46,723 bases of DNA. Origin: an uncultured Candidatus Saccharibacteria bacterium (GTDB taxonomy: Bacteria; Patescibacteriota; Saccharimonadia; Saccharimonadales; UBA4665). The notes beneath the pieces are model-generated. The model was not told the DNA's origin and searched no databases. It was given only the letters and a program-made list of their open reading frames with translations. Shown piece after piece: positions 16,367 to 43,795 of the stretch. Both the position numbers and the translations under genes were made by a program. Numbering within the stretch: position 1 is the stretch's first letter; each line of letters opens with the position of its first letter. The stretch spans positions 1 to 46,723 of the forward strand of contig CAZRWV010000001.1 in the NCBI GenBank assembly GCA_964603965.1. The letters run 5' to 3'.

Positions 16367-19300
16367 TTAGCTATATACGATACCACGCCTGACACTAATC
16401 TGTGGTGCAGCCTGTCTGCCGCCGCTGTGTCCCTGCAAGGCCACCCTGTTGTACTTAGAGCCGGTAGGCATACCCGAACGGGTGATCTGACCCGTCTTTG
16501 GCGTGCGTGGGCCTGCAGCGACACTAGCCGTACCCTTTGAGCTGCCACTACCTGCAGGCGCTATGCCGTTCTTATACTTTGGATTGCTGATGATGTCAGC
16601 CTCGTATAGTGCCTTGTCGTAGGCAATGAGCTGATCGGCCATCTTTTGCTTGTCAACGCCGTCCTCGGGTGTGGTCAGGTAATCGTAGAGGTTAGCCTTA
16701 CCAACCCCATACATGTCGCGAATTTGCTTAGGAAATGCCGAACCAGCACGATCTTTACGAAGCGCGGCTTCCTTGTTGATCTGTTGAGCGGTGGTTAGCT
16801 TGCCCTCTCGCAGCAGCTGCTCAAACTGGGCGGCATGTAGTTTGAACTCGGCATCCGGCTGGTTGTCTAGAAGTCGTTGACGGCCATCATCTGTCATCTT
16901 GGCATACTGGGTAAGTATATGTGCTGATTCCTGACTTATCCCGTTCGGTAGGTTGATATCGGGGTTCAATGCCCGCTTTGCAGCCATAAATTGGTCGTAG
17001 ATCGCCTGGTTATCGGGGCTCTGTTTTGCCCAATCTTTGCGCTCAGCGTCGTTCTTGAGGCCGGCAAAGTCCTTGCCAAAGGCCTCGGTTAATGCTGCCT
17101 TGTCTTTCAGTAGGTCTGGGCCAGTCATGCTGGAGTTAGTTGTACCGCCGTTAGATTGATTCTTCGGTGCGCCGTGCAGTGCGTATGGGCCAAGCAGTGC
17201 GCCCGTGGCGTAATTTTGCGGTGTTTTCGGGATAGTCATAGTTGGTTTCCCGTATTGCTTCACTTCACCGCGATTCACGGCATTCACGCCCGTGACAGTC
17301 TTCTTACCCTGTACGAACCCCGGAACAACTGAGCTACCAACCTTGTTGCCTACGTTCATCCATGCTCTCACGATCTTCTGCCCGCGTGTGGATTGATTGG
17401 TGTCCTTTGCTGTGGCAGTAGTGGCTATAGCCTTACCGACCGTCCCCGGCACCTGAAATGGAGCTGTACCACCAACCTGGGCGGACGGTAGCATGTCCTG
17501 CGGTTTGTAGCCAAGCGCCCTACCGACCGTTAGAAATACGGCGGCGCTCGCCATGGTGAATCTCAATAGTTTGGCGAACTCCTTGTTCTTGACCATCTCG
17601 CCCAAGTATTCAGCTTGTTTGACGTTATAGCTTTGGAACTGAGTGACCAACTTCGTGAGGTCGTCCTGCAGTGCTACGGGGGTATCCACCCGCCCGAAGG
17701 TGAACTGTGTCTTTCGCGCCGTATCGATACCGGCCTGTATGGCCTCGGCCTCGCTCTTCCCTGCACGAAGTGCCGCATCCTTAGCACCGAAGTATGCAGC
17801 GCCACGGTTTATCTTTTCTGCCGCCTCAAAGAATGCAAATAGCCCCTTATCTGCCTTCTGCAGTAGCTTCTTAGCAGCGCTAATAGTCCTGTCCTCTACA
17901 AACGAGTTATCGAGCACGCCGACATCTTGAAGTTCTGTGCTACGTGTTGCGATTGCGTGAAGTGCTCTGCCGTAACCGTCTATCGTGCCTCTGGTACCAA
18001 GCTCCGCAAAGGTGTTTATGCCCTGCGTCAAGTTCCTGACAGCTGAACCAATGTTGAGTCCGAGGCTAGCACGATATGTTGCCTGACGAATGCCGCGTGA
18101 TAGCCGTGCAGTCGGTCTGTTGCCAAGCTTGTACCCCACAGGTGATTGCTTGATCATGTTGTCCAGCAGGTTGTCGATCATAGTGGGACGCATATTGATG
18201 CGATCACCGTAGTGCTTCACAAAGTCATAGCCGCTCTTGTCCAGGCCCTGTGAGGCATATGACAGCTTCTCGAGCGCAGGGTCAAAATTGGCCTTGCGTG
18301 TGGCCCGCTTAACGTAGGCGTCCAGGGCAACAAAGGCGTCCTGTTTGTACCCCCGTTTGCCCAGGCGTTTCTGCGTGAACGGGTCGTATACGGAGCCTGG
18401 CACCTTATCGGCAATCAGCTTTTCGAGGTCGGGGTCAAACTCCTTAGAAATGAATGCGTCGTCAAAAATGTGGGTGATGTAATTCGAGATCCGCTGCTCC
18501 GGCGGCAGTTTCAGGCGGTCGGCCCAGCTACTCAGGTACTCCTTTATCTCGCCGGCAACGCGCAACTCATTACCCTGCAGTAGGCGTTTGGCGCCGGGCT
18601 GGCCGTCCAGGTACCTGAATATGCGCTCAGAGGCGTCCTTGGAGCGGCCGACCTCATCGAACCATTTAGTAATACGGTCAATCTCTTTTGGAAGCTGTTG
18701 CTTGTATGCGTGATCGGCCTCGCGCAGCGCTTTGGCTTCGTTGCCCAGACCAATCTTTTGCAGGACGCGCTCCGGCGTACGTAGGTAGTCCAAGATGCCG
18801 ACCTTGCGGTTCAGCGGGTAGCTACCATGTATGACGGCCTCGTCAACAGCATCAGGTACGACTGCACCAATCGGGTTGTATGCAGCGGCCTTTACTTTGC
18901 CGGACATCTCAGCCTCTTGCGCTTTAGCGGCCCGGTACAATGCTCGTTCCACGTCTGACATGCCTCTAGTACCACCAGTACGCTCTTTCAGTACATCAGA
19001 TAGCGGTTTCGGGTTTGCGTAGCCTCTGACCTCATTTGCGGCCTGCTGTAGTTCGCTTACATGCTCGGGCGCAATATCTAGGCTACGGGTTAGTCGCTCA
19101 GGTTGGGCCGGAGGTTCCGTGGCTACATCATTCTCTCGGGTCGTCTTATAAACAACGCGGGTGTTGCCGACCCGTTCACCCTTTACTTTCTTATCTGAAT
19201 TAAGCGGTAGGTCTTTGACAACACTACCATCAGATAATTGAATGTCGGCTTTCTGGCCCTGATATTCACCCTCCAGGCTCCGATATTCACTTGTGTTAAG

Positions 19301-20737
19301 CACTTTGCCCTCTACGACATCTGATGCGATATTGGGATTCGACGGGTAAGTGGTGACTTTGACGTTGTCGCCGGATTTTATAGACCCCCCTATAATGTCA
19401 GCCTCTGGAACGAGTGTCTGATGATTCGTTGCTGCCGCCTCACGCGCTGCAATCTCCATGTCTGCACCTGTGGCACCAGGACGGTCCGCGACCGTGCGAA
19501 CGACAGGCAGCGCCTCAGCTATTTTCTCTACCTGTCCAGCCGGTGGTACACTATTAGGTAATGAAGCTTGACGACTGGATGTGGAACCGGGCTTACTCTC
19601 CGAAGCGGGGGCACGACCTCGCGTGGTTTTACCTATGGGCACGCTACCCTCATCTGCGCCGCGCCGTCCGGGAAGGGAGACATAGCCACCTTGAGCCAGT
19701 CGATGCACTTCCTCCTGGTTCACAATCTTCCCAGGAATCGTCTGCAGACCCAGAGACTTAGCCGCTGCGAGACGGTGTTTACCATCCTCTACGAAAAGCT
19801 TGCCTTTCGGATCACGCATTACCAGGATTGGTTTAATGCGTCCGGTTTTCGCTATCTGATCCCTATACTTTGCTACCTGAGTAGGATCAAGGTCACCATA
19901 CCCTGATGCATCCGTAGGCGTTAGGCGGTCTATGTGTAATCTACCGAGCGGCTTAGATTTTGACGCTGTTTCTGCCAACATCGTCCGTTGAGCACGCGGT
20001 AAACCTCTGACAGCTTTTGTGGCCAGTCTAGCGCCCTCGCCGGCGGCGGCTCCAGCAGCGGGCAGCACAAATCCAACAACTGCAGTTGTGCCAGCGTTTC
20101 CGAGCGCCTGACGAGCTGTAGCGTTGGGATCATGGACATATGTACCAGCAAACCCGGACGGAGCAGACAATGCAGCGGTCTTTGTACCCTGCTGCACTAA
20201 CTCACGGGTTACGGCTTTAGTGGCCGCCCATTTACCACCCTGTTTCAGTGCCTGCCTGCCAGCCATACGCGCAGCCTGGCCGCCTGCAGCCCCAAATCCA
20301 GCCGTAGCGCCAGTAAAGGCAGTGTCTGCGAACGCAGCACCAGCCCTGACGGGGTTGGTGTTTTTGACTATCTCGTGGCTCAGGTTCTCGGCCATGTTGT
20401 TTGTCTCTGGCAGCTGAGCCTCGGTAGTGGTCAACAGGTGCTGGTAACGTGCCCTCTGCTCGGGTGTAACACCGGGTCGCGCCATGCCCCTACGTGCCAC
20501 CAGGATGCTATTCATACTAGCATCCTGAGCACCTTGGGCTGAATGCTGTGCGGCCCTTACATCAGGTGAAAACCCATACGCAAGGCTCCTACCCAACTGG
20601 GTAGGGCCTTCGGTAGCACCTTCTACGAATGATCTGCCGACACGTTCTGCCGGGTTCACTATGTCACGGTTTACCGTTTCTATGCCGCCCTGAATTTTCT
20701 TCTTGGCGGTACCGAGCCAGGATAGCAGCTTGGCCAT
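16367..20737 (-). CDS. 1456-aa virion-associated multidomain (polyvalent-type) protein with a ParB/Srx-like N-terminal-type domain
   Basis: GGAGG RBS. Gly/Ala-rich hydrophobic N-terminal third. Residues about 265-340, LHIDRLTPTD...IKPILVMRD...FVEDGKHRLAAAKSLGLQTIPGKIV, are ParB-like. The long helical C-terminal part sits where T7 gp16 would be. Confidence 0.55.
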   Translation of the reverse strand: MAKLLSWLGTAKKKIQGGIETVNRDIVNPAERVGRSFVEGATEGPTQLGRSLAYGFSPDVRAAQHSAQGAQDASMNSILVARRGMARPGVTPEQRARYQHLLTTTEAQLPETNNMAENLSHEIVKNTNPVRAGAAFADTAFTGATAGFGAAGGQAARMAGRQALKQGGKWAATKAVTRELVQQGTKTAALSAPSGFAGTYVHDPNATARQALGNAGTTAVVGFVLPAAGAAAGEGARLATKAVRGLPRAQRTMLAETASKSKPLGRLHIDRLTPTDASGYGDLDPTQVAKYRDQIAKTGRIKPILVMRDPKGKLFVEDGKHRLAAAKSLGLQTIPGKIVNQEEVHRLAQGGYVSLPGRRGADEGSVPIGKTTRGRAPASESKPGSTSSRQASLPNSVPPAGQVEKIAEALPVVRTVADRPGATGADMEIAAREAAATNHQTLVPEADIIGGSIKSGDNVKVTTYPSNPNIASDVVEGKVLNTSEYRSLEGEYQGQKADIQLSDGSVVKDLPLNSDKKVKGERVGNTRVVYKTTRENDVATEPPAQPERLTRSLDIAPEHVSELQQAANEVRGYANPKPLSDVLKERTGGTRGMSDVERALYRAAKAQEAEMSGKVKAAAYNPIGAVVPDAVDEAVIHGSYPLNRKVGILDYLRTPERVLQKIGLGNEAKALREADHAYKQQLPKEIDRITKWFDEVGRSKDASERIFRYLDGQPGAKRLLQGNELRVAGEIKEYLSSWADRLKLPPEQRISNYITHIFDDAFISKEFDPDLEKLIADKVPGSVYDPFTQKRLGKRGYKQDAFVALDAYVKRATRKANFDPALEKLSYASQGLDKSGYDFVKHYGDRINMRPTMIDNLLDNMIKQSPVGYKLGNRPTARLSRGIRQATYRASLGLNIGSAVRNLTQGINTFAELGTRGTIDGYGRALHAIATRSTELQDVGVLDNSFVEDRTISAAKKLLQKADKGLFAFFEAAEKINRGAAYFGAKDAALRAGKSEAEAIQAGIDTARKTQFTFGRVDTPVALQDDLTKLVTQFQSYNVKQAEYLGEMVKNKEFAKLLRFTMASAAVFLTVGRALGYKPQDMLPSAQVGGTAPFQVPGTVGKAIATTATAKDTNQSTRGQKIVRAWMNVGNKVGSSVVPGFVQGKKTVTGVNAVNRGEVKQYGKPTMTIPKTPQNYATGALLGPYALHGAPKNQSNGGTTNSSMTGPDLLKDKAALTEAFGKDFAGLKNDAERKDWAKQSPDNQAIYDQFMAAKRALNPDINLPNGISQESAHILTQYAKMTDDGRQRLLDNQPDAEFKLHAAQFEQLLREGKLTTAQQINKEAALRKDRAGSAFPKQIRDMYGVGKANLYDYLTTPEDGVDKQKMADQLIAYDKALYEADIISNPKYKNGIAPAGSGSSKGTASVAAGPRTPKTGQITRSGMPTGSKYNRVALQGHSGGRQAAPQISVRRGIVYS

Positions 20738-21862: not shown

Positions 21863-22387
21863 TTATTTCGATTGGCAGAAGTGTTCTACGATCTGGTTAC
21901 CGCTGATTCCGAAACCAGTCAGATCGTACGCGCCATTAATCATAGCTGCGTGGTGAGGCGGACTCGCGATCCACGCATTCACAGCATGTGCCGCATCGTT
22001 AACAGTTGTATTCTGGGTAAGGTTTTCACTTGAATCAATGCATGAAATCCCGGTTGCTATCATCCAGTAACGACTATTGCCTCGATTGTTCGGGCTCTTA
22101 TCGCTCTCATGGCCAAAATACCCATACTTCACCTCATCATTAGCCTTCATCTGGGCCGAGCTGTTCAGCCTATCATCAATCTTCAGTGGTGCTGCACCGT
22201 TCCTCGCTCGTTCTTTATTCACGAGAGCAAGTAGCTCGTCTACAGCCGGCGGGTGCACCTTAGCCTGCGTGACAGGTGTATCGGTCTGGCCCCTGCCATC
22301 GTCCGATGTAATGATTACAGTCGCCCCAAAGGCTGCCCAGATGATTAGGCAGGATGCAGCAATTATCCACACCTTTTTGCTTGACAT
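21863..22387 (-). CDS. CAP/SCP/PR-1 superfamily protein with an N-terminal membrane anchor or signal
   Basis: LLALVNKERARNGAAPLKIDDRLNSSAQMKANDE...GHES...ENL...AVNAWIASPPHHAAMIN...G is a typical CAP domain pattern. Confidence 0.75.
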   Translation of the reverse strand: MSSKKVWIIAASCLIIWAAFGATVIITSDDGRGQTDTPVTQAKVHPPAVDELLALVNKERARNGAAPLKIDDRLNSSAQMKANDEVKYGYFGHESDKSPNNRGNSRYWMIATGISCIDSSENLTQNTTVNDAAHAVNAWIASPPHHAAMINGAYDLTGFGISGNQIVEHFCQSK

Positions 22388-22432
22388 ACCTAAGATATTA
22401 GCATATTCTTATGGTAAAGTCAACAGAGGGGG

Positions 22433-22819
22433 ATGTGTATGCTAGCTCTGCTCCTGGTAAGTTGTACGGTAGCTCTTGGTGGTTTTCTATGGTGGACATT
22501 CCACAAAGCGATGGCGGGGGAAAGACACTTGGTCGCAGACATATCGTCGCACGACCCCTGTCAGTTCTGCGATGATCCGCACGCCGCCACCCTTCGCCAA
22601 ACTAAGGTCGTTGGGGTGTTGATTGGCTGTGAGAAGTCGGAGTACGCGCTTAGGGTATGCCAGAAACACGCTCAGGAATCTTTTGCGTTCTTCATGAAAA
22701 AGAACCTGCTTTTTGGCTGGTGGTCCCTGATATCGCCGATCTTGCTACCGATATGTCTCTGCATGAACGCGTTCAACTACCAAAAGTACAAATCTGCGCT
22801 ATTAGCTAGTAAAAACTAG
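22433..22819 (+). CDS. Membrane protein with a Cys-rich central segment; the only + strand gene inside the late arm
   Basis: GGGGGA RBS. N- and C-terminal hydrophobic helices. Opposite orientation to all neighbouring genes. Confidence 0.5.
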   Translation: MCMLALLLVSCTVALGGFLWWTFHKAMAGERHLVADISSHDPCQFCDDPHAATLRQTKVVGVLIGCEKSEYALRVCQKHAQESFAFFMKKNLLFGWWSLISPILLPICLCMNAFNYQKYKSALLASKN

Positions 22820-23002: not shown

Positions 23003-23359
23003 TTATGGTCGGATTCTTGTGGCGACTATGCCGGCGATTGCTACCAATATGCCCGCAGCCGTCAGTAGGGCTGTCAGTGACACCTTCCTGTTTGTGGCCC
23101 ACAGATCGAATATGCCGAACGGTATGCCAAATTTTCTGGACAAGAACTCATCACCCTTGATGGTGGTCTTATAGAGATCAGTCAGTTTATTGTCCTGCTC
23201 GATCAGCTTATGTGTTACGGCAAACTCAAGTGCCTTTTCCGCGTCGCGTCGCATCAACGGTGTGAGGCTGGTGATGTTATTTGGACCATCCTGATCCATG
23301 TGCAGAGCGCAGACGGACGCTAGGTCTACGACCATACGTGCATTACGGTATATTCCCAT
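23003..23359 (-). CDS. Tail-anchored membrane protein with a winged-helix-like N-terminal domain
   Basis: ALEFAVTHKLIEQDNKLTDLYKTTIKGDEFL (wHTH-like) and C-terminal helix LTALLTAAGILVAIAGIVA. TATAAT ends 8 nt upstream of the ATG. Confidence 0.45.
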   Translation of the reverse strand: MGIYRNARMVVDLASVCALHMDQDGPNNITSLTPLMRRDAEKALEFAVTHKLIEQDNKLTDLYKTTIKGDEFLSRKFGIPFGIFDLWATNRKVSLTALLTAAGILVAIAGIVATRIRP

Positions 23360-23374
23360 AACCTGGATTATACG

Positions 23375-23959
23375 CTATGCTCGGCCACCCCAAACCTTAC
23401 TAAACGGCTGATGTTCGCCGCGCTCCATCCTGCCCTTATCCCAGAATCCTAAGCTTTCAACCGGCAGGTCGGCCTGTTTAAACGCGAACGCCCATGCCCG
23501 CTCGGTACCCTGTGCCTGCAGTTTGTTTTCGGGTGTCTTGGGGAACAGACCCTTACTGTCCAGCAGTTCCATACTCGCCCGGTTCGTGTAGAACACTGGC
23601 CCAAAGATACCGTATTCGGGCATCGGGCAGCTGTACTGGCTATCCACCCATTCAGCCTGCTCCTGGGTATCAAAGAACAGACCAAAGTGCCCCCAGGCCA
23701 CTGCCCCAAGTTCTGGCATCTTTTCCCTGAACGGAGCCATAACATCATCCGTGATGGCGCGCATGCTGTCCTGGATGAATAGGTAATTGTCGGCCGGATG
23801 CTCGCGGTATGCCCTGACGTACGCACCGGATGGATGTCCACCGCTCGATGTATCCATTACAACAACCTGATACCTATCACCCAGCGACTCCAGGCAGGAA
23901 TCGATATAGGTGTTATCAAACGCGGCTACTACTACGATGTCTCTCGATTGCTTGGTCAT
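23375..23959 (-). CDS. GT-A-like glycosyltransferase candidate
   Basis: DIVVVAAFDNTYIDSCLESL...YQVVVMDTS...YLFIQDS resembles the Rossmann-like start and DxD-type motif of GT-A enzymes. Last gene of the overlapped cassette. Confidence 0.4.
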   Translation of the reverse strand: MTKQSRDIVVVAAFDNTYIDSCLESLGDRYQVVVMDTSSGGHPSGAYVRAYREHPADNYLFIQDSMRAITDDVMAPFREKMPELGAVAWGHFGLFFDTQEQAEWVDSQYSCPMPEYGIFGPVFYTNRASMELLDSKGLFPKTPENKLQAQGTERAWAFAFKQADLPVESLGFWDKGRMERGEHQPFSKVWGGRA

Positions 23960-24161
23960 ACGCCTCTAATTCCCGATAGCACCTCTTGTGAAAGTGCAGT
24001 TCTTTCTTAAATCCGCCGATATTGATCCAGCAATGGTACATGCGGAGCCACAGCCGTCTGCCGCAGAACGCACAGTGCGCCATGCGGTAGGACTGCGGGG
24101 ATTGGGATGCTTCCGGTTCCCATTTGTTGGCCTCTGCCAGTAGGGTGCGTTGGCTAATCAT
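23916..24161 (-). CDS. Small Cys/His protein
   Basis: ATGA coupling to the SDR gene. HCAFCGRR...HFHKRC pattern. Overlaps the next gene by 44 nt. Confidence 0.35.
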   Translation of the reverse strand: MISQRTLLAEANKWEPEASQSPQSYRMAHCAFCGRRLWLRMYHCWINIGGFKKELHFHKRCYRELEAYDQAIERHRSSSRV

Positions 24162-24793
24162 AGTGTTACTGGCTCACCCACTTTTAGCTCTCTGCGCCAT
24201 GATTCGTTACGGTCTACCTTAATCGGGGCTGTTTCGTATCCAATCCGACGGATGATGATGTTGTCGCCTGCCTGGTACTTACCGTCGGCGATGTCGTAAA
24301 CGACTTTCGCAACTTCCCACGTCTCTAACCGGGTGCCAGGTTGGTCGGCCGGATAGTCGTGTTGGCGCATCCGCGTATCGACGCGGCCAGGGCTGATTGC
24401 GTATGCGTCGTAACCTTCCATCGCCAGTGATTCCACTAGAGATATAACGCCGCCCTTGGAGGCGCTATACCCGCTATGATTTGGTTTGCCGTAAAGTCCA
24501 GCCACAGAAGCAATAAAAATCATCTTCCTGGCACCAAACACCGCTGCAGCCTTGGCTACGTGGTAGCTACCGAGCAGATTCACCTCAAGCTCTTCCTGCC
24601 AGTCGTTAGGCAACGAGTCTTTGATGTTGGATACGTGCGACACCCCAGCCGTCACCACGACCACCTCGGGCTTGTGCTGGAATATCTTCGCTTGTACGGC
24701 GTTATAGTCGCGCACATCGCACTTGTCTTTATCCAGGATGGTGCCGCCGATTGCTGCTGCGATGTCCCCACCGCCGAATATTAATGTGTCCAT
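24158..24793 (-). CDS. Classical short-chain dehydrogenase/reductase (SDR)
   Basis: FGGGDIAAAIG dinucleotide-binding turn, TAGV, catalytic YSASKGG (YxxxK), and ISPGRVDT. Confidence 0.8.
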   Translation of the reverse strand: MDTLIFGGGDIAAAIGGTILDKDKCDVRDYNAVQAKIFQHKPEVVVVTAGVSHVSNIKDSLPNDWQEELEVNLLGSYHVAKAAAVFGARKMIFIASVAGLYGKPNHSGYSASKGGVISLVESLAMEGYDAYAISPGRVDTRMRQHDYPADQPGTRLETWEVAKVVYDIADGKYQAGDNIIIRRIGYETAPIKVDRNESWRRELKVGEPVTL

Positions 24794-25443
24794 GATCCAA
24801 CCGCCACTGCCGCTTCAAATAGCTGTAGTTCTTCGGGCGTACCGAGCATCGCGGACGGAGCATCGTACACGCCGAGTTTCTTGCCACTCTCTATCATCCG
24901 GGCGATGGCGGACGACACGTAGAATTCGCCCTTAACACGTTCATCGTTTTCAATGACTTGTCGGCCGGCCTCAATAAAATCACCAGCCCGCTTGAAGTAA
25001 TAGACTCCAGTAACTGCCCAGTTGGAAATGACCTCTTTTTCGGCAATCCGAGTGATGAGAGAATGGTCGTCCAGTTCGACGTAACTATGGTGTTCCTTGT
25101 TCGATTTGAATACCACTAGCCCACCGTCGATGTTATACTGACGGACCCTATCGATCATTTTGTCCACATCGAAAGCAACGAGCTGGTCACAGTTACCGAT
25201 AAGCAGCGGTTCCTCAGGGTCGAGGTTTGCACGCAGTATAGTCTCTACGGCACCCCTGGATGGTTCCGTGAGCATAGGCCTGGTGATCACCTGGATTGTG
25301 TGCAGCTGGCTAGGCCGTAGGTTTTCGATTACTCGTGAGATCATAGACCTACCGTTTACGTTGATCAGGTGTTTCGGTTGGTCGTACCCGACATCTTTGA
25401 ACCTTTGGCCGTTGCCAGCGGCTGGGATGACTAATTGGATCAT
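24781..25443 (-). CDS. Sugar- (or alditol-) phosphate nucleotidylyltransferase
   Basis: LVIPAAGNGQRFKDVGYDQPKHLINVNGRSMI signature of NTP-transferase folds. C-terminal LGTPEEL. Confidence 0.8.
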   Translation of the reverse strand: MIQLVIPAAGNGQRFKDVGYDQPKHLINVNGRSMISRVIENLRPSQLHTIQVITRPMLTEPSRGAVETILRANLDPEEPLLIGNCDQLVAFDVDKMIDRVRQYNIDGGLVVFKSNKEHHSYVELDDHSLITRIAEKEVISNWAVTGVYYFKRAGDFIEAGRQVIENDERVKGEFYVSSAIARMIESGKKLGVYDAPSAMLGTPEELQLFEAAVAVGSWTH

Positions 25444-25577
25444 TCTGCTACCCTTTCGAACGTCTGAACCATATTTTTTGCCACCAGCTCGATCTCTTCT
25501 GCTGTCACCTCATTCACGTAGACAGTGTTGTGGTATGTCCGGCCATTGTGGGTGAATTTGTATGATATTGTTTCCAT
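25440..25577 (-). CDS. Small protein (45 aa), paralogue of the 32977-33177 product
   Basis: TAATG coupling to the GT-B gene and ATGA coupling to the NTase gene. ISYKFTHNGRTYHNTV...ELVAKNMVQTFERVA compares with IEWQFTYRGKRWGNAV...ELMAVNMLETFDALA. Confidence 0.45.
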   Translation of the reverse strand: METISYKFTHNGRTYHNTVYVNEVTAEEIELVAKNMVQTFERVAE

Positions 25578-26671
25578 TATTTTGACTCCTTTACCTTGAT
25601 AAACATGTCTCGGTACGCTTCCCAATGGTCTTCAAGCCGCCAGTTCTTAAGCTCCTTCTTTGCTCTGGCAACCTGGGCTTTGCGTCTCTGCTCGTCGAAA
25701 ACCAGCTCTTCCAGCACGGCGAACCATGCCTCCTGGGTATTCGGGGTGAGCGTGGCAACATCCTTGCTAAGCGGCTTGTAGGGGCCGACGTTACTTGCAA
25801 CGAACGCCATACCCATCCGGGTAGATTCCTGCCACTTGATGTTCGACTTATATTTGTTGAACTCGGTGTCGAGCAACGGCGCACAGGCGATGTCCATCCC
25901 TAGAGACGGCAGTGTTTCCGTGGGCCATTTGACACCTTGTGCCACATCCACCTCCTCCACGCGGGCACGGGGCAGATAGTGATCGAGCGGCTGGCCGCAT
26001 ATCTTGAAGTAGACGTTTTTGTACTTGTGCATCAGCTTTTCGGCTGCCGGGAGAAGTCCGGTCTGATGCAAGTCGTTGTAGTGGCTCGCGCCGCCAAAGA
26101 ATCCGATCACAACTTTGTCGCCGTTGTCTACGCTCTGCTCTGGGTACATGTCTGATATGTAGTTGGGTATCACAAACATGTTGGGGTCTACCCCTGAGCG
26201 TGCGCGAATCTTGTCCGCAAGGTCATCGTTGGTAGTGCAGATGTTCTTGGCTATGCCCGCCATAACCCCAAGGAATTCATGCCCCTGCCAGCCGGCCGAC
26301 CGCCAAAACCCGAAGTTCGACGGGTCAACGTCGAATAGGTCATCATCGAAATCAAGGATATGTTTGGTACCGAACCGCTTCTCCGCGCCCCAGAGTAGGG
26401 TGTACACATGTGGGCTAGTGAAATAACTCGAGAAAATAACGTCGTACTGACCTAATTCCCTGACAAGGTCTACGCCGTACTTTTTAATAAACCCATCCGG
26501 GTCAAGCTCCATTCCGTGAAAGCCCTGGATGATTGCCGGCCGGAAATCTATCTGCCAGTCAACATGCTTTTGCAGTTCCATCAACGGGCGCTTAATGCGC
26601 CATAGATGGATAGCGGAGTCTTGCTTTAGTTTCGAATCACCTACGTAACCACTAATTGCTAATATCTTCAT
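25577..26671 (-). CDS. GT-B fold glycosyltransferase (GT1/GT4-like; a TagF-like transferase is not excluded)
   Basis: Two Rossmann-like halves. C-terminal KWQESTRMGMAFVASNVGPY resembles the E..(E)A.A.G.PV.AS..G donor-binding motif. GAGG RBS. Confidence 0.6.
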   Translation of the reverse strand: MKILAISGYVGDSKLKQDSAIHLWRIKRPLMELQKHVDWQIDFRPAIIQGFHGMELDPDGFIKKYGVDLVRELGQYDVIFSSYFTSPHVYTLLWGAEKRFGTKHILDFDDDLFDVDPSNFGFWRSAGWQGHEFLGVMAGIAKNICTTNDDLADKIRARSGVDPNMFVIPNYISDMYPEQSVDNGDKVVIGFFGGASHYNDLHQTGLLPAAEKLMHKYKNVYFKICGQPLDHYLPRARVEEVDVAQGVKWPTETLPSLGMDIACAPLLDTEFNKYKSNIKWQESTRMGMAFVASNVGPYKPLSKDVATLTPNTQEAWFAVLEELVFDEQRRKAQVARAKKELKNWRLEDHWEAYRDMFIKVKESK

Positions 26672-26731: not shown

Positions 26732-26989
26732 CTATCGGCTGTACTGCCCTAACCGTTTTTGCCGCGAGTACCGATCTATCTCGTGCTCAATCTGTTCAAT
26801 TGCCCGTTTGTCATTGACCTGTGTGGCCCGGATTAGCCGGTGCCGCATCTCGACCAAACACTTGTCCTTGACTTGCCTCTGGATGCTGCAAAAGCTTCTG
26901 TAGGCGTACTGCTTGGTCTGTTTGTCTTTGTGCGGGTCGTTGAAGATCTTGTGCAACCGAATCAGATCGGTATCGCGACTGGTGTCCAT
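26732..26989 (-). CDS. Basic hypothetical protein
   Basis: Starts 1 nt after the upstream stop. 85 aa, Lys/Arg/Gln-rich. Confidence 0.4.
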   Translation of the reverse strand: MDTSRDTDLIRLHKIFNDPHKDKQTKQYAYRSFCSIQRQVKDKCLVEMRHRLIRATQVNDKRAIEQIEHEIDRYSRQKRLGQYSR

Positions 26990-26990: not shown

Positions 26991-27437
26991 CTACTCTTCG
27001 TCCATCAATCGCGTTTCGGGCGGTTGATCGATGTCCAGGATGCGACGGATACGCTCGATCTGTGGCTCATTGTCGAAGCCAAAGACGATCATGGCGATCT
27101 GGTACAGGTTCTTGCCCTTGTTGTAAAGTGCCTTCACCTTATCTTCGTTCGATTCCTGAGGCGGAACAGCCTTTGCAGCCTTTTGAGCCGCCTCGGCCTG
27201 TTCGCGGGCATCAGCTTCTGCTTTGCGCGCAGCCTCAGCCTCAGCCTTGGCGGCAGCCTCAGCCCTGCGGGCTTCCTCAGCAGCAGTCTCAGCAGCAGCT
27301 AGACGTGCTTCGAGATCGGCGTTGTTTTTGGTGTCGTCAGTTGCCTTACCATCAGCAGGGGCGGTATCCGCCGGTGCCGGAGTCGAGGGTGCCGGAGCAC
27401 CCCCAGCTTCTGGTGAATTTTTTGTAGTGTTGGCCAT
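26991..27437 (-). CDS. Ala/Glu-rich coiled-coil protein (head-associated?)
   Basis: ATG at 27437 preceded by GGAGG; the track start at 27542 lies inside the capsid gene. AEEARRAEAAAKAEAEAARKAEADAREQAEAAQKA repeats. Confidence 0.5.
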   Translation of the reverse strand: MANTTKNSPEAGGAPAPSTPAPADTAPADGKATDDTKNNADLEARLAAAETAAEEARRAEAAAKAEAEAARKAEADAREQAEAAQKAAKAVPPQESNEDKVKALYNKGKNLYQIAMIVFGFDNEPQIERIRRILDIDQPPETRLMDEE

Positions 27438-27475
27438 AATGCCTCCGTTATGGCGGATACCCGCCTTAGTTACTG

Positions 27476-28396
27476 TTAAGCGCTCTTGATGTTCACAATC
27501 CAGTTGCTGTTCAGGGTCTTGGTAGCAAAGGCAGCCTTCCAACCAATGGTCATGAACATGTTCAACGGGTTGCTGGTGTCGCTCTTGTCGCTCTGCTTGA
27601 CGATCAAGCGCATAGCGTTGCCAGACAGGTCAACCGTACCAATGGCCTCTTGGCCGTGGATGAAGTTACTGAACACGTCGATAGAGCCCGAACCTGCACC
27701 AGCATCTTTGTACTGGTTGCTCGTAGCCTCGATGAAGCGCACACCGAACAGCTTACCGATCTCACCCCTAAAGATGTTGCCGGCAGTGTTGTACTTGTAC
27801 ACGTCAATCCAGGTGGTGCTGTCAGCCATCAGGCTGTAGCTGGTGTCGGGACCGATCTTGCCCAGGAAGTAGCCATCTTCGTACGGCATAGCGTTGGCTT
27901 TTTTCAAGGTCTTCACGCCCTTACGGATTTCGGTCGAACTCATCGTGTCAGACGAAGCCACGAGCGACAGGGCGGCTTTACCACCAGCGAACTGGGTAGT
28001 AGCACCAGCTGCCAGCTCGTTACGTACCAAGGTGTCCAGGGTTTCAGCAGCGTTCTGCGCCAGAACCTCAGTCTTTTCGGTCGCGGCCTTGTCGATTGAC
28101 GTACCGTAGAGCAGGCTAGAAACTTTAACAAAGTTACCGTATTCAGCGACGGTGGCGCTAACCGTAGAGCCAGTCATGTTGGCTTCGGTCGGGTTACTTG
28201 CCTCGGTCAGTGCAGTAGTTGCAACAGCCAGGGGCGTGTAGCGGTTCCAGGTCATAGCCTTACCGCTGTTTTGGGGGTGAACGCGCTTCTTAGCACCTTC
28301 TGCGTGGGGCAAGGCAGCCTTGGACCGCGACAGGAAGGTATCGACCAAGAAGGTCATCATTTCACCAGTCAGTGTGCCAGTTGTGTCAGAAGACAT
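27476..28396 (-). CDS. Major capsid protein (HK97 fold, podoviral type)
   Basis: 306 aa immediately after the scaffold-like gene. AAGGAAA RBS. Composition and length fit an MCP, and the pattern resembles N4-gp56/T7-type capsids as I recall them. Confidence 0.8.
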   Translation of the reverse strand: MSSDTTGTLTGEMMTFLVDTFLSRSKAALPHAEGAKKRVHPQNSGKAMTWNRYTPLAVATTALTEASNPTEANMTGSTVSATVAEYGNFVKVSSLLYGTSIDKAATEKTEVLAQNAAETLDTLVRNELAAGATTQFAGGKAALSLVASSDTMSSTEIRKGVKTLKKANAMPYEDGYFLGKIGPDTSYSLMADSTTWIDVYKYNTAGNIFRGEIGKLFGVRFIEATSNQYKDAGAGSGSIDVFSNFIHGQEAIGTVDLSGNAMRLIVKQSDKSDTSNPLNMFMTIGWKAAFATKTLNSNWIVNIKSA

Positions 28397-28415: not shown

Positions 28416-29297
28416 TTAAACATCATGTCCTTTCGCACGGAGGTAAGCGCGTTTTTCGTCAAGAGTCATCGAGTCGAATCCCTTAGAGGGTTGCGGCGCT
28501 CCACCTACGTTATCTGCAGAGGCCAGCATTTGCTCTGTGGCGCGCTGTCCCTGCAATCTTCCGTCGGTAGTGCTCTGCGCGTAGGTTTCATGAAAAGCTT
28601 GGTAGAGTTGATACGGACGTTGTGAAGAACCGATGACTTGACCAGTATTGGGATCAAACACCAGACTCGTGGCCATGATATTGTCGACCATAGCGGCGAT
28701 ATCCGCCCTGTAATTAGGATTTGTCGGATTACCCTGCGCGTCAGGCATTGGGTCAAACATGGGGAAATCCCTGAGTGCCCGTTCTGCCTCGTTGCCGAGT
28801 ACCAGCTGCGTCTCAGCTACACGGTCGTTGTATGCGCTCATCTGTTGAGAGTCGCCCATAACTTTGACCCGAGCCTCTAGCGGACTGTAGTAATCGCCAG
28901 TGTCAGGATTGATCTGGTCTAACAGCTGTTGTTCGGTTGCGGGCCGGTACGCTTTAGCATTCGCCTGTTCGACGTGCTGCTTGAGCGCATTACGCACCGA
29001 GACTAAATCTCTGATCTCGGTATTAGGGTCGATCCCGGCTTGTTTTTGCAAGTCCTGAATCTCGCCCTTGAGCTGTTCTTTTCGCTTCTCAGCGCCTCGC
29101 GGTTCGTTGGGAGTGTCGCCTGCAGGCTTGTCAGTCGTTTCCGACTGGGGCTGTGGTTTGACATCATCCGCCGAGTACTCGCCCGTATCATTGGCGGGAC
29201 TCGCGGTCGCTACAGGTTTGTTGTCCTCAGGTGCCGGTGCTGGGGCAGCAGGCTGTGCTGCTGGTTCTGGGTTTACGGCTGTGGCTTCTTCGGCCAT
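28416..29297 (-). CDS. Scaffolding-like protein
   Basis: Acidic Pro/Ala/Glu-rich N-terminus, helical remainder, position directly before the capsid gene. Start chosen at ATG 29297; the track start at 29336 is TTG. Confidence 0.45.
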   Translation of the reverse strand: MAEEATAVNPEPAAQPAAPAPAPEDNKPVATASPANDTGEYSADDVKPQPQSETTDKPAGDTPNEPRGAEKRKEQLKGEIQDLQKQAGIDPNTEIRDLVSVRNALKQHVEQANAKAYRPATEQQLLDQINPDTGDYYSPLEARVKVMGDSQQMSAYNDRVAETQLVLGNEAERALRDFPMFDPMPDAQGNPTNPNYRADIAAMVDNIMATSLVFDPNTGQVIGSSQRPYQLYQAFHETYAQSTTDGRLQGQRATEQMLASADNVGGAPQPSKGFDSMTLDEKRAYLRAKGHDV

Positions 29298-29350
29298 GGT
29301 GCTCGCTTTCCATCTATATCCCATAACCACGGCCAAGTGGTTAATTATTG

Positions 29351-29885: not shown

Positions 29886-30194
29886 CTACATATGCCCATC
29901 AATCAGGCCCTTGATGGCTCTCCTTTCCGTTTCAAGCTGCTGACGCACAATGTCCATGACGACTAGGGCTGTTGCGCTATCGATGTTGTAGTTTTCGGCA
30001 ATTACAAATGCTTGCTTTACGCTGTCGGTCGCCGCAATCCGGTCGTCAAGATGCTTGATGACCTCCAGTAGTGCCGGTAGCGCGGTCAGAACCTCTATGG
30101 CCTCTTCGTGCTCTGCCTTTACCTGATCTTCTGGCACGGTCGCATAGAATGCACCATCATTCGGGTATAGATTGCCATCGGTTACGCTGCTCAT
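29886..30194 (-). CDS. Hypothetical head-module protein
   Basis: ATGA coupling with the portal stop. Confidence 0.45.
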   Translation of the reverse strand: MSSVTDGNLYPNDGAFYATVPEDQVKAEHEEAIEVLTALPALLEVIKHLDDRIAATDSVKQAFVIAENYNIDSATALVVMDIVRQQLETERRAIKGLIDGHM

Positions 30195-32233
30195 GCCGGC
30201 TGCCTCATCGAAGCCAGGTTGTTCATCACGTCCTGGTCGCTCATGCCCTGATCAAGCATGTTCATTGCCTGGTTGATAGCATCCTTACCAAACCCAAGAC
30301 GTTCTAGGTGGTAGGCGATCTGTTGATCTTCCTCGGTCGTGTCCTGAGCTGGTTGAGCTGGTGCCATTGGCTGGGCCGGGGCCATCGCCTGGACTTGGGT
30401 CTGCTGCAGCCTGACCTGTTCCTGTTGCAGTTTCACCTTGTCCTGCTCGAGCTTCACGCCCTCTTGCTGGGTTTTGATCTGTTCCGTCTCAACCTGTGAG
30501 TCGGTTCCCTGGGACTGGGCGGCCTTGGCCTGCTGCTGTTTGAACTCTTCTACGTCAACGGTCAGTTCTTCGGGGTCTTCAACGCCCGAAGCATCAACGA
30601 TCTTGTTCCAAGCTCCAACGATCTTTTCCTGTGGCACCACAGCGGCCAGGATGGGGTTGTCTTTCAGGGTGTCCATCAGTCCGGTAAGTGCAGCTAACTG
30701 CTCCTGGTCGGTCTTAATCTTCGATGTCGAAGCGTCTACGGTGAATCTCAGGGCCGGGGTGGCAGTATCGTAGTCGATCCGAATCTTGTTATCGGGCGAC
30801 ACCAAGGACATGTCGAACTTGCCCTTTTTGGCCAGCCTTCGAAGCTTATCGACGGATTTGCTGTCCAGCTGCACCTCTTCCACGCCAGAGCGTTCAGCGA
30901 ACCATAGGTTGATGGCCGTCTCGCTCCAGTTGCCGAACCACGTCTCGAACATCTTACGGATGTAGTTGTCGTCAACTGAGATGACAGCCTGTTGCTGGCG
31001 TAAGCCCTCAGGAGTCTTGGAAAAGCCCGGGTTGCCCACATCGGCGCTGACGCTCGTGTCGGGGCTGTTCACTAGGTTCAATAGCTGGGACTTCTGCAGG
31101 CCGTATAGTTCTGGGTAGTTTTGGACTGCTGAGGTGTCGATCTTAAGCGGGATAACATCAGCGGTGGGCGTTTCGCCAACATCGATAATCTTGTTGGGTT
31201 CGTAGACAATCTGCGATTTGGGGAAACTGCCCCTTTTGATGACAGGCGGCGCGAGCATCAAGGCCCGGTTCCACTGGTACATCTGCATGTCTGCGTCAAT
31301 CAGGTTCTGCAGGCCGCCGACTAGTTCAACAATTCCACGGCCCAATGGGTTGGTACCGTCGATATCGCCATACATCCAGTCGATAGGCATCTTGCCGCGT
31401 GGGTCTTTGTTCTTCTTGCGGCGCAAGACCTTCTCTGAGGCTGGATTGAAGGTGAAGAATGTAGCGCCAACACCGATCTGGAAACCGGTCACGATCTCGA
31501 TAGCAGTTGTGCTAGTGGCGCGGTCACGTTCGACTGGAGTGGAGGCTTTGTCGTCTTTTACGGTGACAGCATCCCTGGCCTCTTTGAGCGCTTTGGCATC
31601 CCAACCGGATTCGTAGTCTGGCTCGACTTCCTTACCAGCCTTACGCTGACGGTACTGCCGTGACTTGACCCGCTTAGTCATCTTCTCTATCTGACTTATG
31701 AGCGCGTCGATATCTTCTGGTTGCCACCAAGCACGCATAAAGACGTACTTGCAGGCGTAGCCGGACTTCTTACCCTTCTGCAGGAACATGTCACCCCAGT
31801 AGGTCAGGGTCATGTCGGTTGTGAAGTAACCGTCGTGGTTCAGGAACGGGGCGTAACTCGCACCGGAACCGAATGTCAGGCCACGCTCAATCTGGTTCCA
31901 GCATTTCTGAACCAAGTCGTAGTCTTCGTTGGCATGCTTGAGGATACAGTTTGTGTATATGGACTGAGCTACGATGGGTAGCCAATCATTGTCATCCTCG
32001 CTCGACACAACACCAGTAGGTAGCTGCTGGACAACACGCTTCGGGGTCTTGCGGACTATAGAGGCGGTGGTGCCGTCCGTGGTTTTAGGCAGCTTTTTAT
32101 CGATCCCCTCAGCGGGACGATTGCGAGCAATCCGCTCAAATTCTTTGAACGGTTGCGTTAGAAGCTCGGTATGCTTTTTAGCTTCCTCATACCGATCAAA
32201 TAGATTTTCTTCTGTTAAATACGAAAAAATCAC
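30191..32233 (-). CDS. Portal protein (GTG start)
   Basis: 680 aa lying between terL and the scaffold/capsid genes. Gln-rich C-terminal tail as in T7-like connectors. The only in-frame start is GTG at 32233. Confidence 0.7.
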   Translation of the reverse strand: MIFSYLTEENLFDRYEEAKKHTELLTQPFKEFERIARNRPAEGIDKKLPKTTDGTTASIVRKTPKRVVQQLPTGVVSSEDDNDWLPIVAQSIYTNCILKHANEDYDLVQKCWNQIERGLTFGSGASYAPFLNHDGYFTTDMTLTYWGDMFLQKGKKSGYACKYVFMRAWWQPEDIDALISQIEKMTKRVKSRQYRQRKAGKEVEPDYESGWDAKALKEARDAVTVKDDKASTPVERDRATSTTAIEIVTGFQIGVGATFFTFNPASEKVLRRKKNKDPRGKMPIDWMYGDIDGTNPLGRGIVELVGGLQNLIDADMQMYQWNRALMLAPPVIKRGSFPKSQIVYEPNKIIDVGETPTADVIPLKIDTSAVQNYPELYGLQKSQLLNLVNSPDTSVSADVGNPGFSKTPEGLRQQQAVISVDDNYIRKMFETWFGNWSETAINLWFAERSGVEEVQLDSKSVDKLRRLAKKGKFDMSLVSPDNKIRIDYDTATPALRFTVDASTSKIKTDQEQLAALTGLMDTLKDNPILAAVVPQEKIVGAWNKIVDASGVEDPEELTVDVEEFKQQQAKAAQSQGTDSQVETEQIKTQQEGVKLEQDKVKLQQEQVRLQQTQVQAMAPAQPMAPAQPAQDTTEEDQQIAYHLERLGFGKDAINQAMNMLDQGMSDQDVMNNLASMRQPA

Positions 32234-33481: not shown

Positions 33482-33652
33482 CTACAACCCAACCAGTTCA
33501 CTAAATGCGGTTCTGCGGTACTCTCGGTAATTCGGGGCCTGATATGCCACGAAGATCTTGTGCCTAGACTCTTTGAAAGCGTCGGCTAGCCTTTTGTATT
33601 CAACGCCCATTTTCTGGAACGCTTTTACTATTGCGAACTGATCTTGGTTCAT
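33482..33652 (-). CDS. Small hypothetical protein
   Basis: ATG at 33652 forms an ATGA overlap with the terL stop and follows GGAGGG. Confidence 0.4.
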   Translation of the reverse strand: MNQDQFAIVKAFQKMGVEYKRLADAFKESRHKIFVAYQAPNYREYRRTAFSELVGL

Positions 33653-35028: not shown

Positions 35029-35183
35029 TAAAACCAGACCTGTATCATTTTGTCGGCCAACTCTTTGAACCACGCCTCGAACTGCTGGCCCAATTTTCTG
35101 TCCATTGTCAGCTGCTCAAGCTCGTCGATGCTGAATTCTCTAATCCAGCGCAGAACCAGGTAACGCTTAATCCGTCTGATCAT
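35028..35183 (-). CDS. Small ORF (51 aa) between terS and terL
   Basis: ATGA/TAATG coupling on both sides. My translation: MIRRIKRYLVLRWIREFSIDELEQLTMDRKLGQQFEAWFKELADKMIQVWF. Confidence 0.35.
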   Translation of the reverse strand: MIRRIKRYLVLRWIREFSIDELEQLTMDRKLGQQFEAWFKELADKMIQVWF

Positions 35184-38657: not shown

Positions 38658-38712
38658 CTTATCTGAAGATTTGGTCCCAGCATTCGGGGGTTCGAATCCC
38701 TCCGCCCTAGCC
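38658..38712 (+). repeat. att core, right copy (attR)
   Basis: Identical to 1-55. Phage sequence lies to the left and host sequence with a terminator lies to the right. Confidence 0.85.
38668..38712 (+). tRNA. Displaced 3' fragment of a tRNA-Gln(UUG)-like gene (not a complete tRNA)
   Basis: Same 45 nt as 11-55. The upstream sequence has no TAGGGCG acceptor strand, D arm or anticodon-stem partner. Confidence 0.55.
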
Positions 38713-38729
38713 ATATATAAGCGTTAGGA

Positions 38730-38758
38730 AAGACTTCTTCGGAAGTCTTTTTTGTTTT
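38730..38758 (+). terminator. Rho-independent terminator (native tRNA terminator)
   Basis: AAGACTTC/GAAGTCTT 8-bp stem with a TTCG tetraloop, followed by TTTTGTTTT. Confidence 0.85.
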
Positions 38759-38772
38759 GGTATGATTGGGGT

Positions 38773-39369: not shown

Positions 39370-39393
39370 GTTTGCTATGCTAGAGTTACCTAT

Positions 39394-40044: not shown

Positions 40045-40103
40045 CCATTCGTTCCGAAAAGCGCTCTAGCGCGGTCACGGAATTTTTATGCTATCGTTAG
40101 CAT

Positions 40104-40565: not shown

Positions 40566-40600
40566 CTTCCCGGAGAATCTTTCTTTGGTATAGTACTACC

Positions 40601-41221: not shown

Positions 41222-41222
41222 C

Positions 41223-42407: not shown

Positions 42408-42435
42408 CCGCTTCCTAATGTATCATAGAGCTAGG

Positions 42436-43783: not shown

Positions 43784-43795
43784 CATGGGCCCGAC

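Follow-up and report, generated by a model that had tools for sequence, protein, structure and literature searches.

A glycosyltransferase cassette among the late genes of an uncultured podovirus-type prophage, a candidate for virion glycosylation

We analysed a stretch of 46,723 nucleotides (nt) from an uncultured Candidatus Saccharibacteria bacterium (contig CAZRWV010000001.1 of assembly GCA_964603965.1; hereafter the window), which carries a predicted prophage and, between the capsid and tail genes of that prophage, a cassette of six open reading frames (ORFs) on the minus strand at 23375-26671. The cassette encodes a predicted GT-B glycosyltransferase (GT), a small conserved protein (p45), a nucleotidyltransferase of the sugar-1-phosphate type (NTase), a short-chain dehydrogenase/reductase (SDR), a putative zinc-binding protein (p81) and a protein with a predicted GT-A fold (p194). 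The reading that we favour, and that we give about an even chance of being right, is that virion proteins are glycosylated late, in the cytoplasm, with a nucleotide sugar made by the phage. Our analysis shows the structure of the genes, the folds, the catalytic motifs, the lack of membrane segments and conserved patterns of linkage; we infer which protein is the acceptor, which sugars serve as donors, in what order the steps occur and when the genes are expressed. The acceptor would be the major capsid protein (MCP) or a neighbouring head-associated protein, modified before or during assembly. In a first step, the GT4-like GT-B enzyme would put a sugar from a common host nucleotide sugar onto the acceptor protein. 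In a second step, the NTase would activate a host sugar-1-phosphate and the SDR would modify the sugar or its precursor, the two giving a phage-specific nucleoside diphosphate (NDP) sugar. In a third step, p194 together with p81 would transfer this product, extending or capping the glycan.

Six overlapping genes in the late gene train

The genes follow one another in the order GT-B (25577-26671, 364 amino acids (aa)), p45 (25440-25577; 45 aa from its ATG, or 61 aa if the start is a TTG at 25625), NTase (24781-25443, 220 aa), SDR (24158-24793, 211 aa), p81 (23916-24161, 81 aa) and p194 (23375-23959, 194 aa), all on the minus strand. These coordinates, taken from an ORF listing, match exactly those of an earlier note on this DNA, and the tight couplings described there are reproduced as well. 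GT-B and p45 overlap by 1 nt (TAATG), p45 and the NTase by 4 nt (ATGA), the NTase and the SDR by 13 nt, the SDR and p81 by 4 nt (ATGA), and p81 and p194 by 44 nt; the next gene comes 15 nt after p194. Each of the six has homologs elsewhere, which marks them as genuine genes rather than chance ORFs. A consensus scan of the minus strand found no promoter-like or terminator-like site inside 23375-26671. The note had also placed the cassette between the capsid genes and the tail or ejection genes, and this is the arrangement that we find: the genes for terminase (33649-35073), portal (30191-32233), scaffold (28416-29336) and MCP (27476-28396) are upstream on the same strand, and a gene for a ParB-N protein and the tail genes are downstream. 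One reason to read the cassette as a virion glycosylation system is that its six genes overlap or abut, are co-oriented with the late genes and have no internal promoter-like or terminator-like site. In addition, none of the six proteins has a hydrophobic or membrane-type segment (maximum KD19 below 1.6), so that they would act in the cytoplasm, where capsids assemble.

The GT-B protein and its relatives in flagellin loci

Of the components of the cassette, GT-B has the widest distribution, and it belongs to a divergent subfamily. Its Pfam scores stay under the cutoffs, with 20.7 bits against 27 for PF13692 (GT1_4) and 19.1 bits against 29.7 for PF13579 (GT4_4), and it matches phrog_7162 'glycosyltransferase' with an E-value of 2.5e-23. 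An AlphaFold2 (AF2) model made with 60 homologs has a pLDDT of 95.5 and a pTM of 0.91. The Foldseek matches of this model include ManT, GlgM, MshA, BshA, PglA and PimA (E-values 5e-14 to 1e-11, TMq 0.6-0.71), and the top 50 are GT4-type Leloir enzymes. The model thus bears out the glycosyltransferase call of the earlier note and points to a GT-B fold and a GT4-like Leloir glycosyltransferase, the GT4 neighbours being retaining enzymes. The further suggestion that the protein could be a TagF-like polyol-phosphate transferase we abandon, as there is no match to Glyphos_transf (PF04464) at E-values up to 0.1, no TagF among the top 50 Foldseek matches, and the structural neighbours are all GT4-type. 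Sequence-profile searches of PDB with the GT-B and p194 alignments returned nothing useful, and only the comparison of folds worked. We collected 231 homologs of GT-B, and a subset of 60 sequences has 33 invariant columns. E282, K275, K279, H197, D200, D107, D109 and D110 are invariant across the 60; by our reading of the sequence, the canonical GRxxxxKG and the second Glu of EX7E are replaced by other residues.

The closest cellular homologs of GT-B are domains of multi-GT proteins of 1257-1596 aa in bacterial genomes. In 11 of the genome loci that we fetched, flagellar genes (fliC, fliD and/or fliS) are near the multi-GT gene, and in most of those 11 fliC comes directly after it. The 11 loci include Pseudogulbenkiania, three Chromobacterium species, and metagenome-assembled genomes of Methylococcaceae and Burkholderiales. 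An hhalign comparison of the phage GT-B family with the Pseudogulbenkiania protein gives a probability of 99.5, an E-value of 2.8e-23 and 32% identity over columns 101-361, and the aligned region takes in the motifs that the phage family keeps invariant. This location of the closest cellular relatives in flagellin loci is another reason for virion glycosylation.

Two of the cellular neighbourhoods are given here as examples. In Pseudogulbenkiania (locus L123, 7681-12471) the giant multi-GT gene (GT1-GT2-GT4) has a DegT aminotransferase gene on one side and fliC-fliD-fliS on the other. In Azoarcus (locus L146, 8581-12354) the giant gene lies beside those of a TPR/methyltransferase protein and an ATP-grasp protein, and we detected no flagellar gene in that neighbourhood. 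The giant multi-GT proteins of flagellin loci appear to be uncharacterised.

Linkage to the capsid gene and an accessory slot

We looked at the surroundings of GT-B relatives in all loci whose upstream sequence spans 5 kb or more. A homologous MCP gene lies on the same strand 0.5-6.6 kb upstream in 60 of these 116 loci, and nearly all phage contigs with GT-B show this linkage. It holds over identities of 31-76% for MCP and 26-62% for GT-B, and a linkage kept across such deep divergence argues for virion proteins as the target. The complete order (MCP, small ORFs, p85, GT-B, small ORF, NTase, SDR, p81, p194, tail genes) recurs in two contigs, L001 (38 kb, the same contig as L104) and L002 (37 kb), and the part from the NTase to p194 is also found on short contigs, such as L322. 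In L001 the block of MCP, p85 and GT-B is kept despite a portal and an adaptor that are unrelated to those of the window, and this co-inheritance supports the same reading. The earlier note had called the combination and its placement unusual. That holds less well now that dozens of contigs of uncultured phages show GT-B beside MCP, and L001/L104 and L002 the full cassette. The note had also considered that the cassette could be a common module of a well-described phage group; it does recur, yet the phages that carry it are neither cultured nor described.

Seen from the MCP side, a large clade in which the MCP is about 51% identical has the MCP, p85, a gap of 1.2-2 kb, a CAP-domain gene in either orientation and p354, without GT-B. 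Some closer MCP relatives carry GT-B alone. Since there are clades with and without GT-B, the region from p85 to the CAP-domain or tail genes is best described as a variable accessory slot, and GT-B as an accessory gene found almost exclusively in that slot. The large clade without GT-B excludes GT-B as a universal core gene of the lineage.

The filling of the slot varies between relatives. Long gaps between p85 and GT-B encode two lectin-like proteins of the ConA/Laminin-G kind (Laminin_G_3), a collagen-repeat protein or a tail-repeat protein (L106, 4466-7137; L042, 7571-8725; L041, 6822-8666). Proteins of these kinds typically form surface fibres and are known to be glycosylated, and their presence beside GT-B favours virion glycosylation; the products of the long gaps are possible head fibres or decoration proteins and, as such, candidate glycan acceptors. 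In six loci (L012-L014, L031-L032 and L362; for instance L362, 8001-8171) GT-B is followed by a 57-aa remnant of the p194 C-terminus (72% identical) without NTase and SDR, which indicates that the sub-cassette has decayed or been lost in those phages. Between the window and L001, identity is 92% for the SDR, 79% for p81, 71% for the NTase and 47% for the MCP, with a nucleotide identity of 74% over NTase-SDR. As the SDR, p81 and the NTase are more similar than the MCP, the exchange of the sub-cassette is more recent than the divergence of the capsids; the SDR is strongly constrained. Large phages unrelated to these carry the NTase-SDR pair as well, within extensive glycosyltransferase islands. 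NTase-SDR and p81-p194 are mobile two-gene units that other glycosylation islands of phages also contain.

Two other lineages have comparable genes at a comparable place. In L015 and L016, which have an SU10-type capsid, the order is MCP, a giant GT2-TPR-GT4 protein, a methyltransferase, NTase, SDR, p81, a p194-like gene, GT2 and a GT4-like gene. This independent lineage pairs the MCP with a TPR-GT fusion and with the NTase, SDR, p81 and p194-like genes, and for that reason it also speaks for virion glycosylation. The podovirus MW202801, a distant relative, carries a different set of glycan enzymes at the same place (radical SAM, GT, PhyH, methyltransferase, NodB and GT), which we take as a further reason of this kind. 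The giant protein of L015 (3897-7256; 1119 aa), directly downstream of the SU10-type MCP, contains an intein (Intein_splicing and LAGLIDADG). Pfam matches to an SU10-type portal, adaptor or MCP are present in L001 and L015. We do not use the label SU10-like phage for the window, where the portal and a 221-aa protein have no similarity to those of L001.

The nucleotidyltransferase and the reductase

The NTase is predicted to belong to the sugar-1-phosphate class (PF00483; RmlA, GlmU, GalU, HddC). It matches PF00483 with 43.9 bits (cutoff 21.2), and G10, G12, R14 and K24 of its N-terminal loop are invariant or nearly so. Its best partial NCBIfam matches are AglF, RmlA and GlmU, and no NCBIfam equivalog is reached at cutoff. 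The closest solved relative is PDB 4evw, a nucleoside-diphosphate-sugar pyrophosphorylase of Vibrio cholerae from structural genomics, matched at 1.4e-12 with the single sequence and at 3.7e-26 over the full length with a 48-sequence profile. The entry name of 4evw states no substrate, so the likeness does not fix the donor sugar. After 4evw, the profile ranks ST0452, GlmU, HddC, RmlA and GalU, and about 40 sugar-1-phosphate NTases come ahead of IspD, which is matched at 4e-5 and only in part. Against the IspD family profile (PF01128) the NTase scores 23.4 bits, under the cutoff of 27, and the match covers residues 3-56 only. The R-to-K spacing of the N-terminal motif, as we read it, fits RmlA and not IspD. 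We reject an IspD/TarI identity on these grounds, the PF01128 match being partial and below cutoff and 4evw and the sugar-1-phosphate enzymes far closer. Of the sugar or alditol-phosphate nucleotidylyltransferase that the earlier note had proposed, the sugar-1-phosphate half is retained (PF00483, 4evw) and the IspD/TarI half is not. The logic of cytidine diphosphate (CDP) ribitol synthesis (Bcs1/TarIJ) that it had seen in the gene pair is likewise not supported, since profile and fold checks gave an RmlA/GlmU-type NTase and a GT4-type GT-B. The NTase has 470 homologs, many on contigs of 37-48 kb. IMG/VR contains more than 558 relatives, some of them fusion proteins of cyanophages. A look-up of the exact protein found no record elsewhere.

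The SDR appears to be a classical short-chain dehydrogenase/reductase, in agreement with the note. It matches adh_short with 65.7 bits (cutoff 26.6), and N72, S96, Y109 and K113, which make up the N-S-Y-K tetrad, are invariant in 9 sequences. Its nearest PDB relatives are FabG-type ketoreductases, with E-values down to 4e-22 when a profile is used. The N-terminal dinucleotide-binding motif is truncated and degenerate: compared with FabG, about 40 residues are missing between the Gly loop and the 'CDVRD' strand, the canonical TGxxxGxG is absent, and the Gly motif keeps only G7 invariant. A C25-D26-x-R28 motif is invariant. The SDR always comes directly after the NTase in L001, L002, L003, L015, L098-L102, L243 and L317, and a short SDR directly follows the NTase only in the NTase subclade of at least 45% identity.

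The proteins p194, p81 and p45

We found no Pfam, PHROG or NCBIfam match for p194, and its profile matches only 376 representative clusters among 1.84 billion proteins. In 50 homologs, D64, E153, R154 and W156 are invariant. The AF2 model of p194 has a pLDDT of 94.9. Foldseek matches it in PDB to GT6, B4GalT7, TarP and STIV A197 (E-values 2e-4 to 1e-3, probability 0.99-1.0, TMq 0.45-0.56), and in BFVD to RgpF-like proteins and to GT-A proteins of giant viruses (E-values 2e-7 to 1e-5, TMq about 0.6). The gene at 23375-23959 had been called GT-A-like, and its model does match GT-A folds; we describe p194 as a new family with a predicted GT-A fold, likely the second transferase of the cassette. 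It has no DxD motif. The equivalent position reads F-I-Q-D-S, in which only D64 is invariant, and p194 may be metal-independent or use a variant motif.

The Cys/His protein of 81 aa in the earlier note is p81, in which C30, C33, H43, H56 and C61 are invariant. From this set of residues we predict a small zinc-binding protein. It is the usual partner of p194: in many metagenomic loci p81 is directly upstream of p194, with or without the NTase and the SDR, and a GT-B relative is sometimes found downstream. The p45 protein is 35% identical to a 45-aa ORF at the equivalent position of L001. In L002 (9714-10004) a GroES/Cpn10-like ORF of 91-96 aa replaces p45 between GT-B and the NTase, a phage co-chaperonin inside a glycosylation cassette.

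Alternative explanations

Several points weigh against virion glycosylation. Glycan, acceptor and donor are all hypothetical at this stage. Moron-like genes (a CAP membrane protein and an opposite-strand membrane ORF) occupy the slot as well, which makes it an accessory hotspot and position alone a weak argument. The large MCP clade without GT-B means that the function of GT-B is dispensable. Searches of cultured and GenBank phages found no cultured phage with this module. The glycosyltransferases of flagellin loci are themselves uncharacterised, and GT4 and GT-A enzymes are equally typical of lipopolysaccharide (LPS) and capsule synthesis. We also considered an enrichment of Ser and Thr in the MCPs linked to GT-B as a sign of glycosylation, and set it aside: the Ser plus Thr content is higher in MCPs with a GT-B (0.186 against 0.172), a small difference that is confounded by phylogeny.

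The alternative that survives best, which we hold to be unlikely but serious, is remodelling of the host envelope, in which the cassette would alter a cytoplasmic step of O-antigen, capsule, lipooligosaccharide or teichoic-acid synthesis. This could take place in the lysogen (seroconversion, superinfection exclusion) or late, as receptor masking against the trapping of progeny on debris. An integrase and 55-bp att repeats mark the phage as temperate, moron-like genes for membrane proteins occupy the same slot, and the host may have a Gram-positive wall. GT4 and GT-A folds prevail in the synthesis of LPS, capsule and teichoic acid, p194 weakly resembles TarP, a wall-teichoic-acid glycosyltransferase of prophages, and the family of the NTase is found in the large GT islands of big phages and cyanophages, for which envelope targets are usually assumed. 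The layout of the cassette argues the other way. There is no promoter-like site ahead of it or inside it, its genes overlap as in the late train, and it is not near int and att, the usual place of conversion genes. Conversion modules are either membrane-linked (GtrA/B/C) or single genes near att or lysis genes, expressed in the lysogen. The cassette shares with the GtrABC and TarP types of conversion that glycan-changing genes are carried by a temperate phage, and TarP is a soluble GT-A enzyme; unlike them, it is a six-gene soluble unit within the late train, without transmembrane (TM) segments, and it has no flippase, GtrA/B/C-type or other membrane component. A GtrB/GtrA-like pair occurs only in the host flank (42355-43783), beyond attR and outside the prophage. 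Finally, GT-B is linked specifically to MCP, and its closest cellular relatives are in flagellin and not in O-antigen loci.

An improbable alternative is that the NTase and the SDR make an NDP-alditol, following the logic of CDP-ribitol, CDP-glucitol or CDP-arabinitol, and that an alditol-phosphate is added to the virion or the envelope. Pairs of an NTase and a reductase are the known route to CDP-alditols, as in Bcs1, TarI/TarJ, AbpA/AbpB, Mnp1/Mnp2 and HS5.18/HS5.17 (PMC10918830). The cassette resembles these pairs in having an NTase gene and an NAD(P)H-dependent reductase gene as a two-gene donor unit, and a FabG-type SDR without an NDP-binding C-terminal domain suits a small ketose-phosphate better than an NDP-sugar. 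The known pairs, however, use IspD-family (PF01128) cytidylyltransferases with extended SDR (PF01370), MDR or Bcs1-type reductases (PMC10918830), whereas the cassette has a PF00483/4evw-type NTase, of the sugar-1-phosphate and not the IspD/TarI class, and a truncated classical SDR of 211 aa. It has no polyol-phosphate transferase either: TagF (PF04464), LicD and CDP-alcohol phosphotransferases are absent, and both transferases have Leloir GT folds. Among cultured phages, the SDR match of lowest E-value is to IspD-SDR fusions of the Yersinia phages YerA41 and GN1, a likeness that is no better than that to a generic FabG. In MW570730 (YerA41, 95037-95312) and LC779065 (GN1) the protein is annotated IspD and the matched stretch is SDR-like, which suggests a Bcs1-like IspD-SDR fusion. 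YerA41 and GN1 are Yersinia phages with heavily modified thymidine.

Hypermodification of DNA, in which GT-B and/or the GT-A protein would glycosylate hydroxymethylated bases with the product of the NTase, we consider very improbable: phage DNA glycosyltransferases of both folds have the same top structural matches (BshA and MshA; TarP), a cytidylyltransferase or other donor NTase can accompany them (bioRxiv 10.1101/2023.12.21.572611), and a C5-cytosine methyltransferase-like gene is present at 9688-10374, but that gene belongs to the early arm, on the opposite strand and at a distance of 13 kb, no phage DNA polymerase, TET/JBP dioxygenase or thymidylate-synthase-like hydroxymethylase turned up among the ORFs scanned with Pfam and PHROG, and the neighbour that GT-B keeps in 60 loci is MCP and not a methyltransferase or dioxygenase. 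The phage DNA-glycosylation clusters described by Pyle et al. (bioRxiv 10.1101/2023.12.21.572611) consist of a C5-methyltransferase, a 5mYOX/TET enzyme and a GT; they are like the cassette in having GT-A or GT-B enzymes with the same structural neighbours and sometimes an NTase for the donor, and they adjoin a methyltransferase and a dioxygenase where the cassette adjoins MCP.

The prophage and the neighbours of the cassette

The window appears to consist of a prophage of about 38.7 kb and 8 kb of host DNA (38714-46723), as indicated by 55-bp att repeats, an integrase and host-type genes to the right. The repeat is exact and direct, at 1-55 (attL) and 38659-38713 (attR) on the plus strand, and resembles the 3' end of a tRNA or tmRNA. 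The contig starts exactly at attL, and a terminator-like hairpin follows attR at the end of the prophage. The tyrosine integrase gene is at 36642-37499. Scans of the window for tRNAs and with Rfam gave nothing at threshold, and the att core has a weak match to the 3' end of the Rfam tmRNA (E-value 0.006, 18 nt). A megablast search of the cassette and 24.5 kb of the phage against GenBank phages and E. coli genomes gave no match, and neither did a blastn search of the host flank against E. coli with settings for distant similarity.

Upstream of the cassette, the candidate acceptor MCP (27476-28396, minus strand) matches phrog_1357 at 1.2e-62, shares 35-36% identity with the MCPs of the Bacillus phages Page and Pascal, and has a Ser plus Thr content of 21%. 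Just after it, the ORF p183 (26991-27542) encodes an N-terminus rich in Pro, Ala, Thr and Ser, a coiled coil rich in Ala and Glu, and a C-terminal domain that relatives share. With the annotated TTG start, the ORF has 67 nt in common with the MCP gene; an ATG further inside is the more plausible start. The product could be a decoration protein or a glycan acceptor. The backbone gene p85 (26732-26989, minus strand, 85 aa) follows MCP in relatives with and without GT-B and forms the upstream edge of the slot.

Downstream, 15 nt past p194, is the gene of p118 (23003-23359, minus strand), a tail-anchored membrane protein of 118 aa with a C-terminal hydrophobic segment (KD19 2.41). We found no tblastn match to p118 in the related loci, and its membership of the cassette is uncertain. 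A Cys-rich membrane ORF of 128 aa on the plus strand (22433-22819) interrupts the late train between p118 and the CAP gene; divergent promoter-like sites lie ahead of it at 22381-22423, and it looks like a moron-like insertion. The CAP/SCP-domain gene (21863-22387, minus strand; PF00188 at 3e-13), with an N-terminal TM segment, forms the downstream edge of the slot. This gene is kept in relatives, and its orientation flips between them. Further on, the tail or ejection region encodes a protein of 1456 aa (16367-20737) with a ParB-N-like domain of the sulfiredoxin type, located around residues 250-350.

Besides the short C5-methyltransferase-like protein, the early arm has genes for RecT, NinB, a YqaJ exonuclease and an HNH/NinG-like protein. 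The methyltransferase-like ORF has 228 aa, matches profile positions 1-79 of 324 and is followed by an overlapping ORF of 93 aa (9688-10652 for the two), so that the gene may be split or truncated. The host flank encodes a peptidase S51, a HAD hydrolase, a NUDIX hydrolase, a GtrB-like GT2, GtrA and a methyltransferase. At 41223-43783, the GtrB-like GT2 gene (42355-43380) overlaps the GtrA-family gene (43370-43783), with an opposite-strand ORF of 394 aa beside them. This looks like a chromosomal system for bactoprenol-sugar modification next to the integration site. In a tblastn search of plasmids, the GtrB-like protein matched Bacillus and Vibrio about equally well. Exact-protein look-ups of six host-flank proteins retrieved four, each in a cluster of one or two members.

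Discussion

Phage-encoded glycosyltransferases and virion glycosylation in mycobacteriophages are already known. To our knowledge, glycosylation of virions has been demonstrated so far only in a few mycobacteriophages, where it shields the particles from antibodies. What appears to be new here is a lineage without a cultured member, the consistent pairing of MCP and GT-B, the kinship with glycosyltransferases of flagellin loci, a self-contained unit for donor synthesis, and two protein families without an existing profile model. The interpretation of the earlier note survives in part: an accessory cassette in the late structural train, for which virion glycosylation has the best support from comparative genomics, is kept, and the CDP-ribitol and TagF chemistry is not.

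Two known systems are closest. Mycobacteriophages Che8, Corndog and Myrna glycosylate subunits of the capsid and the tail tube (Freeman et al. 2023, as reported in PMC12363180 and PMC12619734). According to these two reports, the system relies on soluble, phage-encoded glycosyltransferases, is cytoplasmic, and is an accessory trait of patchy distribution. At the level of its genes the cassette is similar, in that its soluble glycosyltransferases are located with the structural genes and in the same orientation. The mycobacteriophage systems are those of siphoviruses and myoviruses of Actinobacteria, while ours is a podovirus-type prophage whose relatives are binned mostly with diderm bacteria. 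We detected no sequence relationship to those systems (tblastn of GT-B against cultured phages gives weak partial matches only), and, unlike them, the cassette has its own NTase and SDR for donor synthesis and a new GT-A family.

The second system is the cytoplasmic O-glycosylation of flagellin by soluble GT-B enzymes, which is established, and in which FlmG is a TPR-GT fusion (PMC7591256). Flagellin O-glycosylation of the FlmG type has in common with the proposed scheme soluble glycosyltransferases, dedicated nucleotide sugars and a self-assembling surface protein. The phage GT-B shares a specific subfamily and signature motifs with GT domains encoded beside fliC-fliD-fliS, and in L015 a TPR-GT fusion adjoins MCP. 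Unlike FlmG, the GT-B of the window has no TPR or recognisable acceptor-binding domain, its flagellin-locus relatives are giant multi-GT proteins, and the cassette has no genes of the Pse, Leg or other nonulosonic-acid pathways.

As a broader and more tentative statement, somewhat less than evenly likely to hold in full, we propose a large uncultured lineage of podovirus-type phages and prophages of about 38 kb with heritable O-glycosylation of the virion, its GT-B shared with flagellin islands and extended by the mobile NTase-SDR and p81-p194 units. Were the cell envelope the target instead, the cassette would represent an unusual kind of conversion module, one that is expressed together with the late genes. 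Soluble, self-contained cassettes for protein glycosylation that make their own donor would be useful for glycoengineering, and surface glycans, which alter the immune recognition of phage, are relevant for phage therapy. If virion glycosylation is correct, there would be testable functions for the GT-A family of p194, for the zinc protein p81 and for a truncated SDR paired with a 4evw-type NTase. Virion glycosylation would then extend to a broad environmental lineage of podovirus type, linked by descent to flagellin glycosylation, and would be a widespread phage strategy, not specific to actinophages, that evolved by exchange with the bacterial machinery for glycosylating surface filaments.

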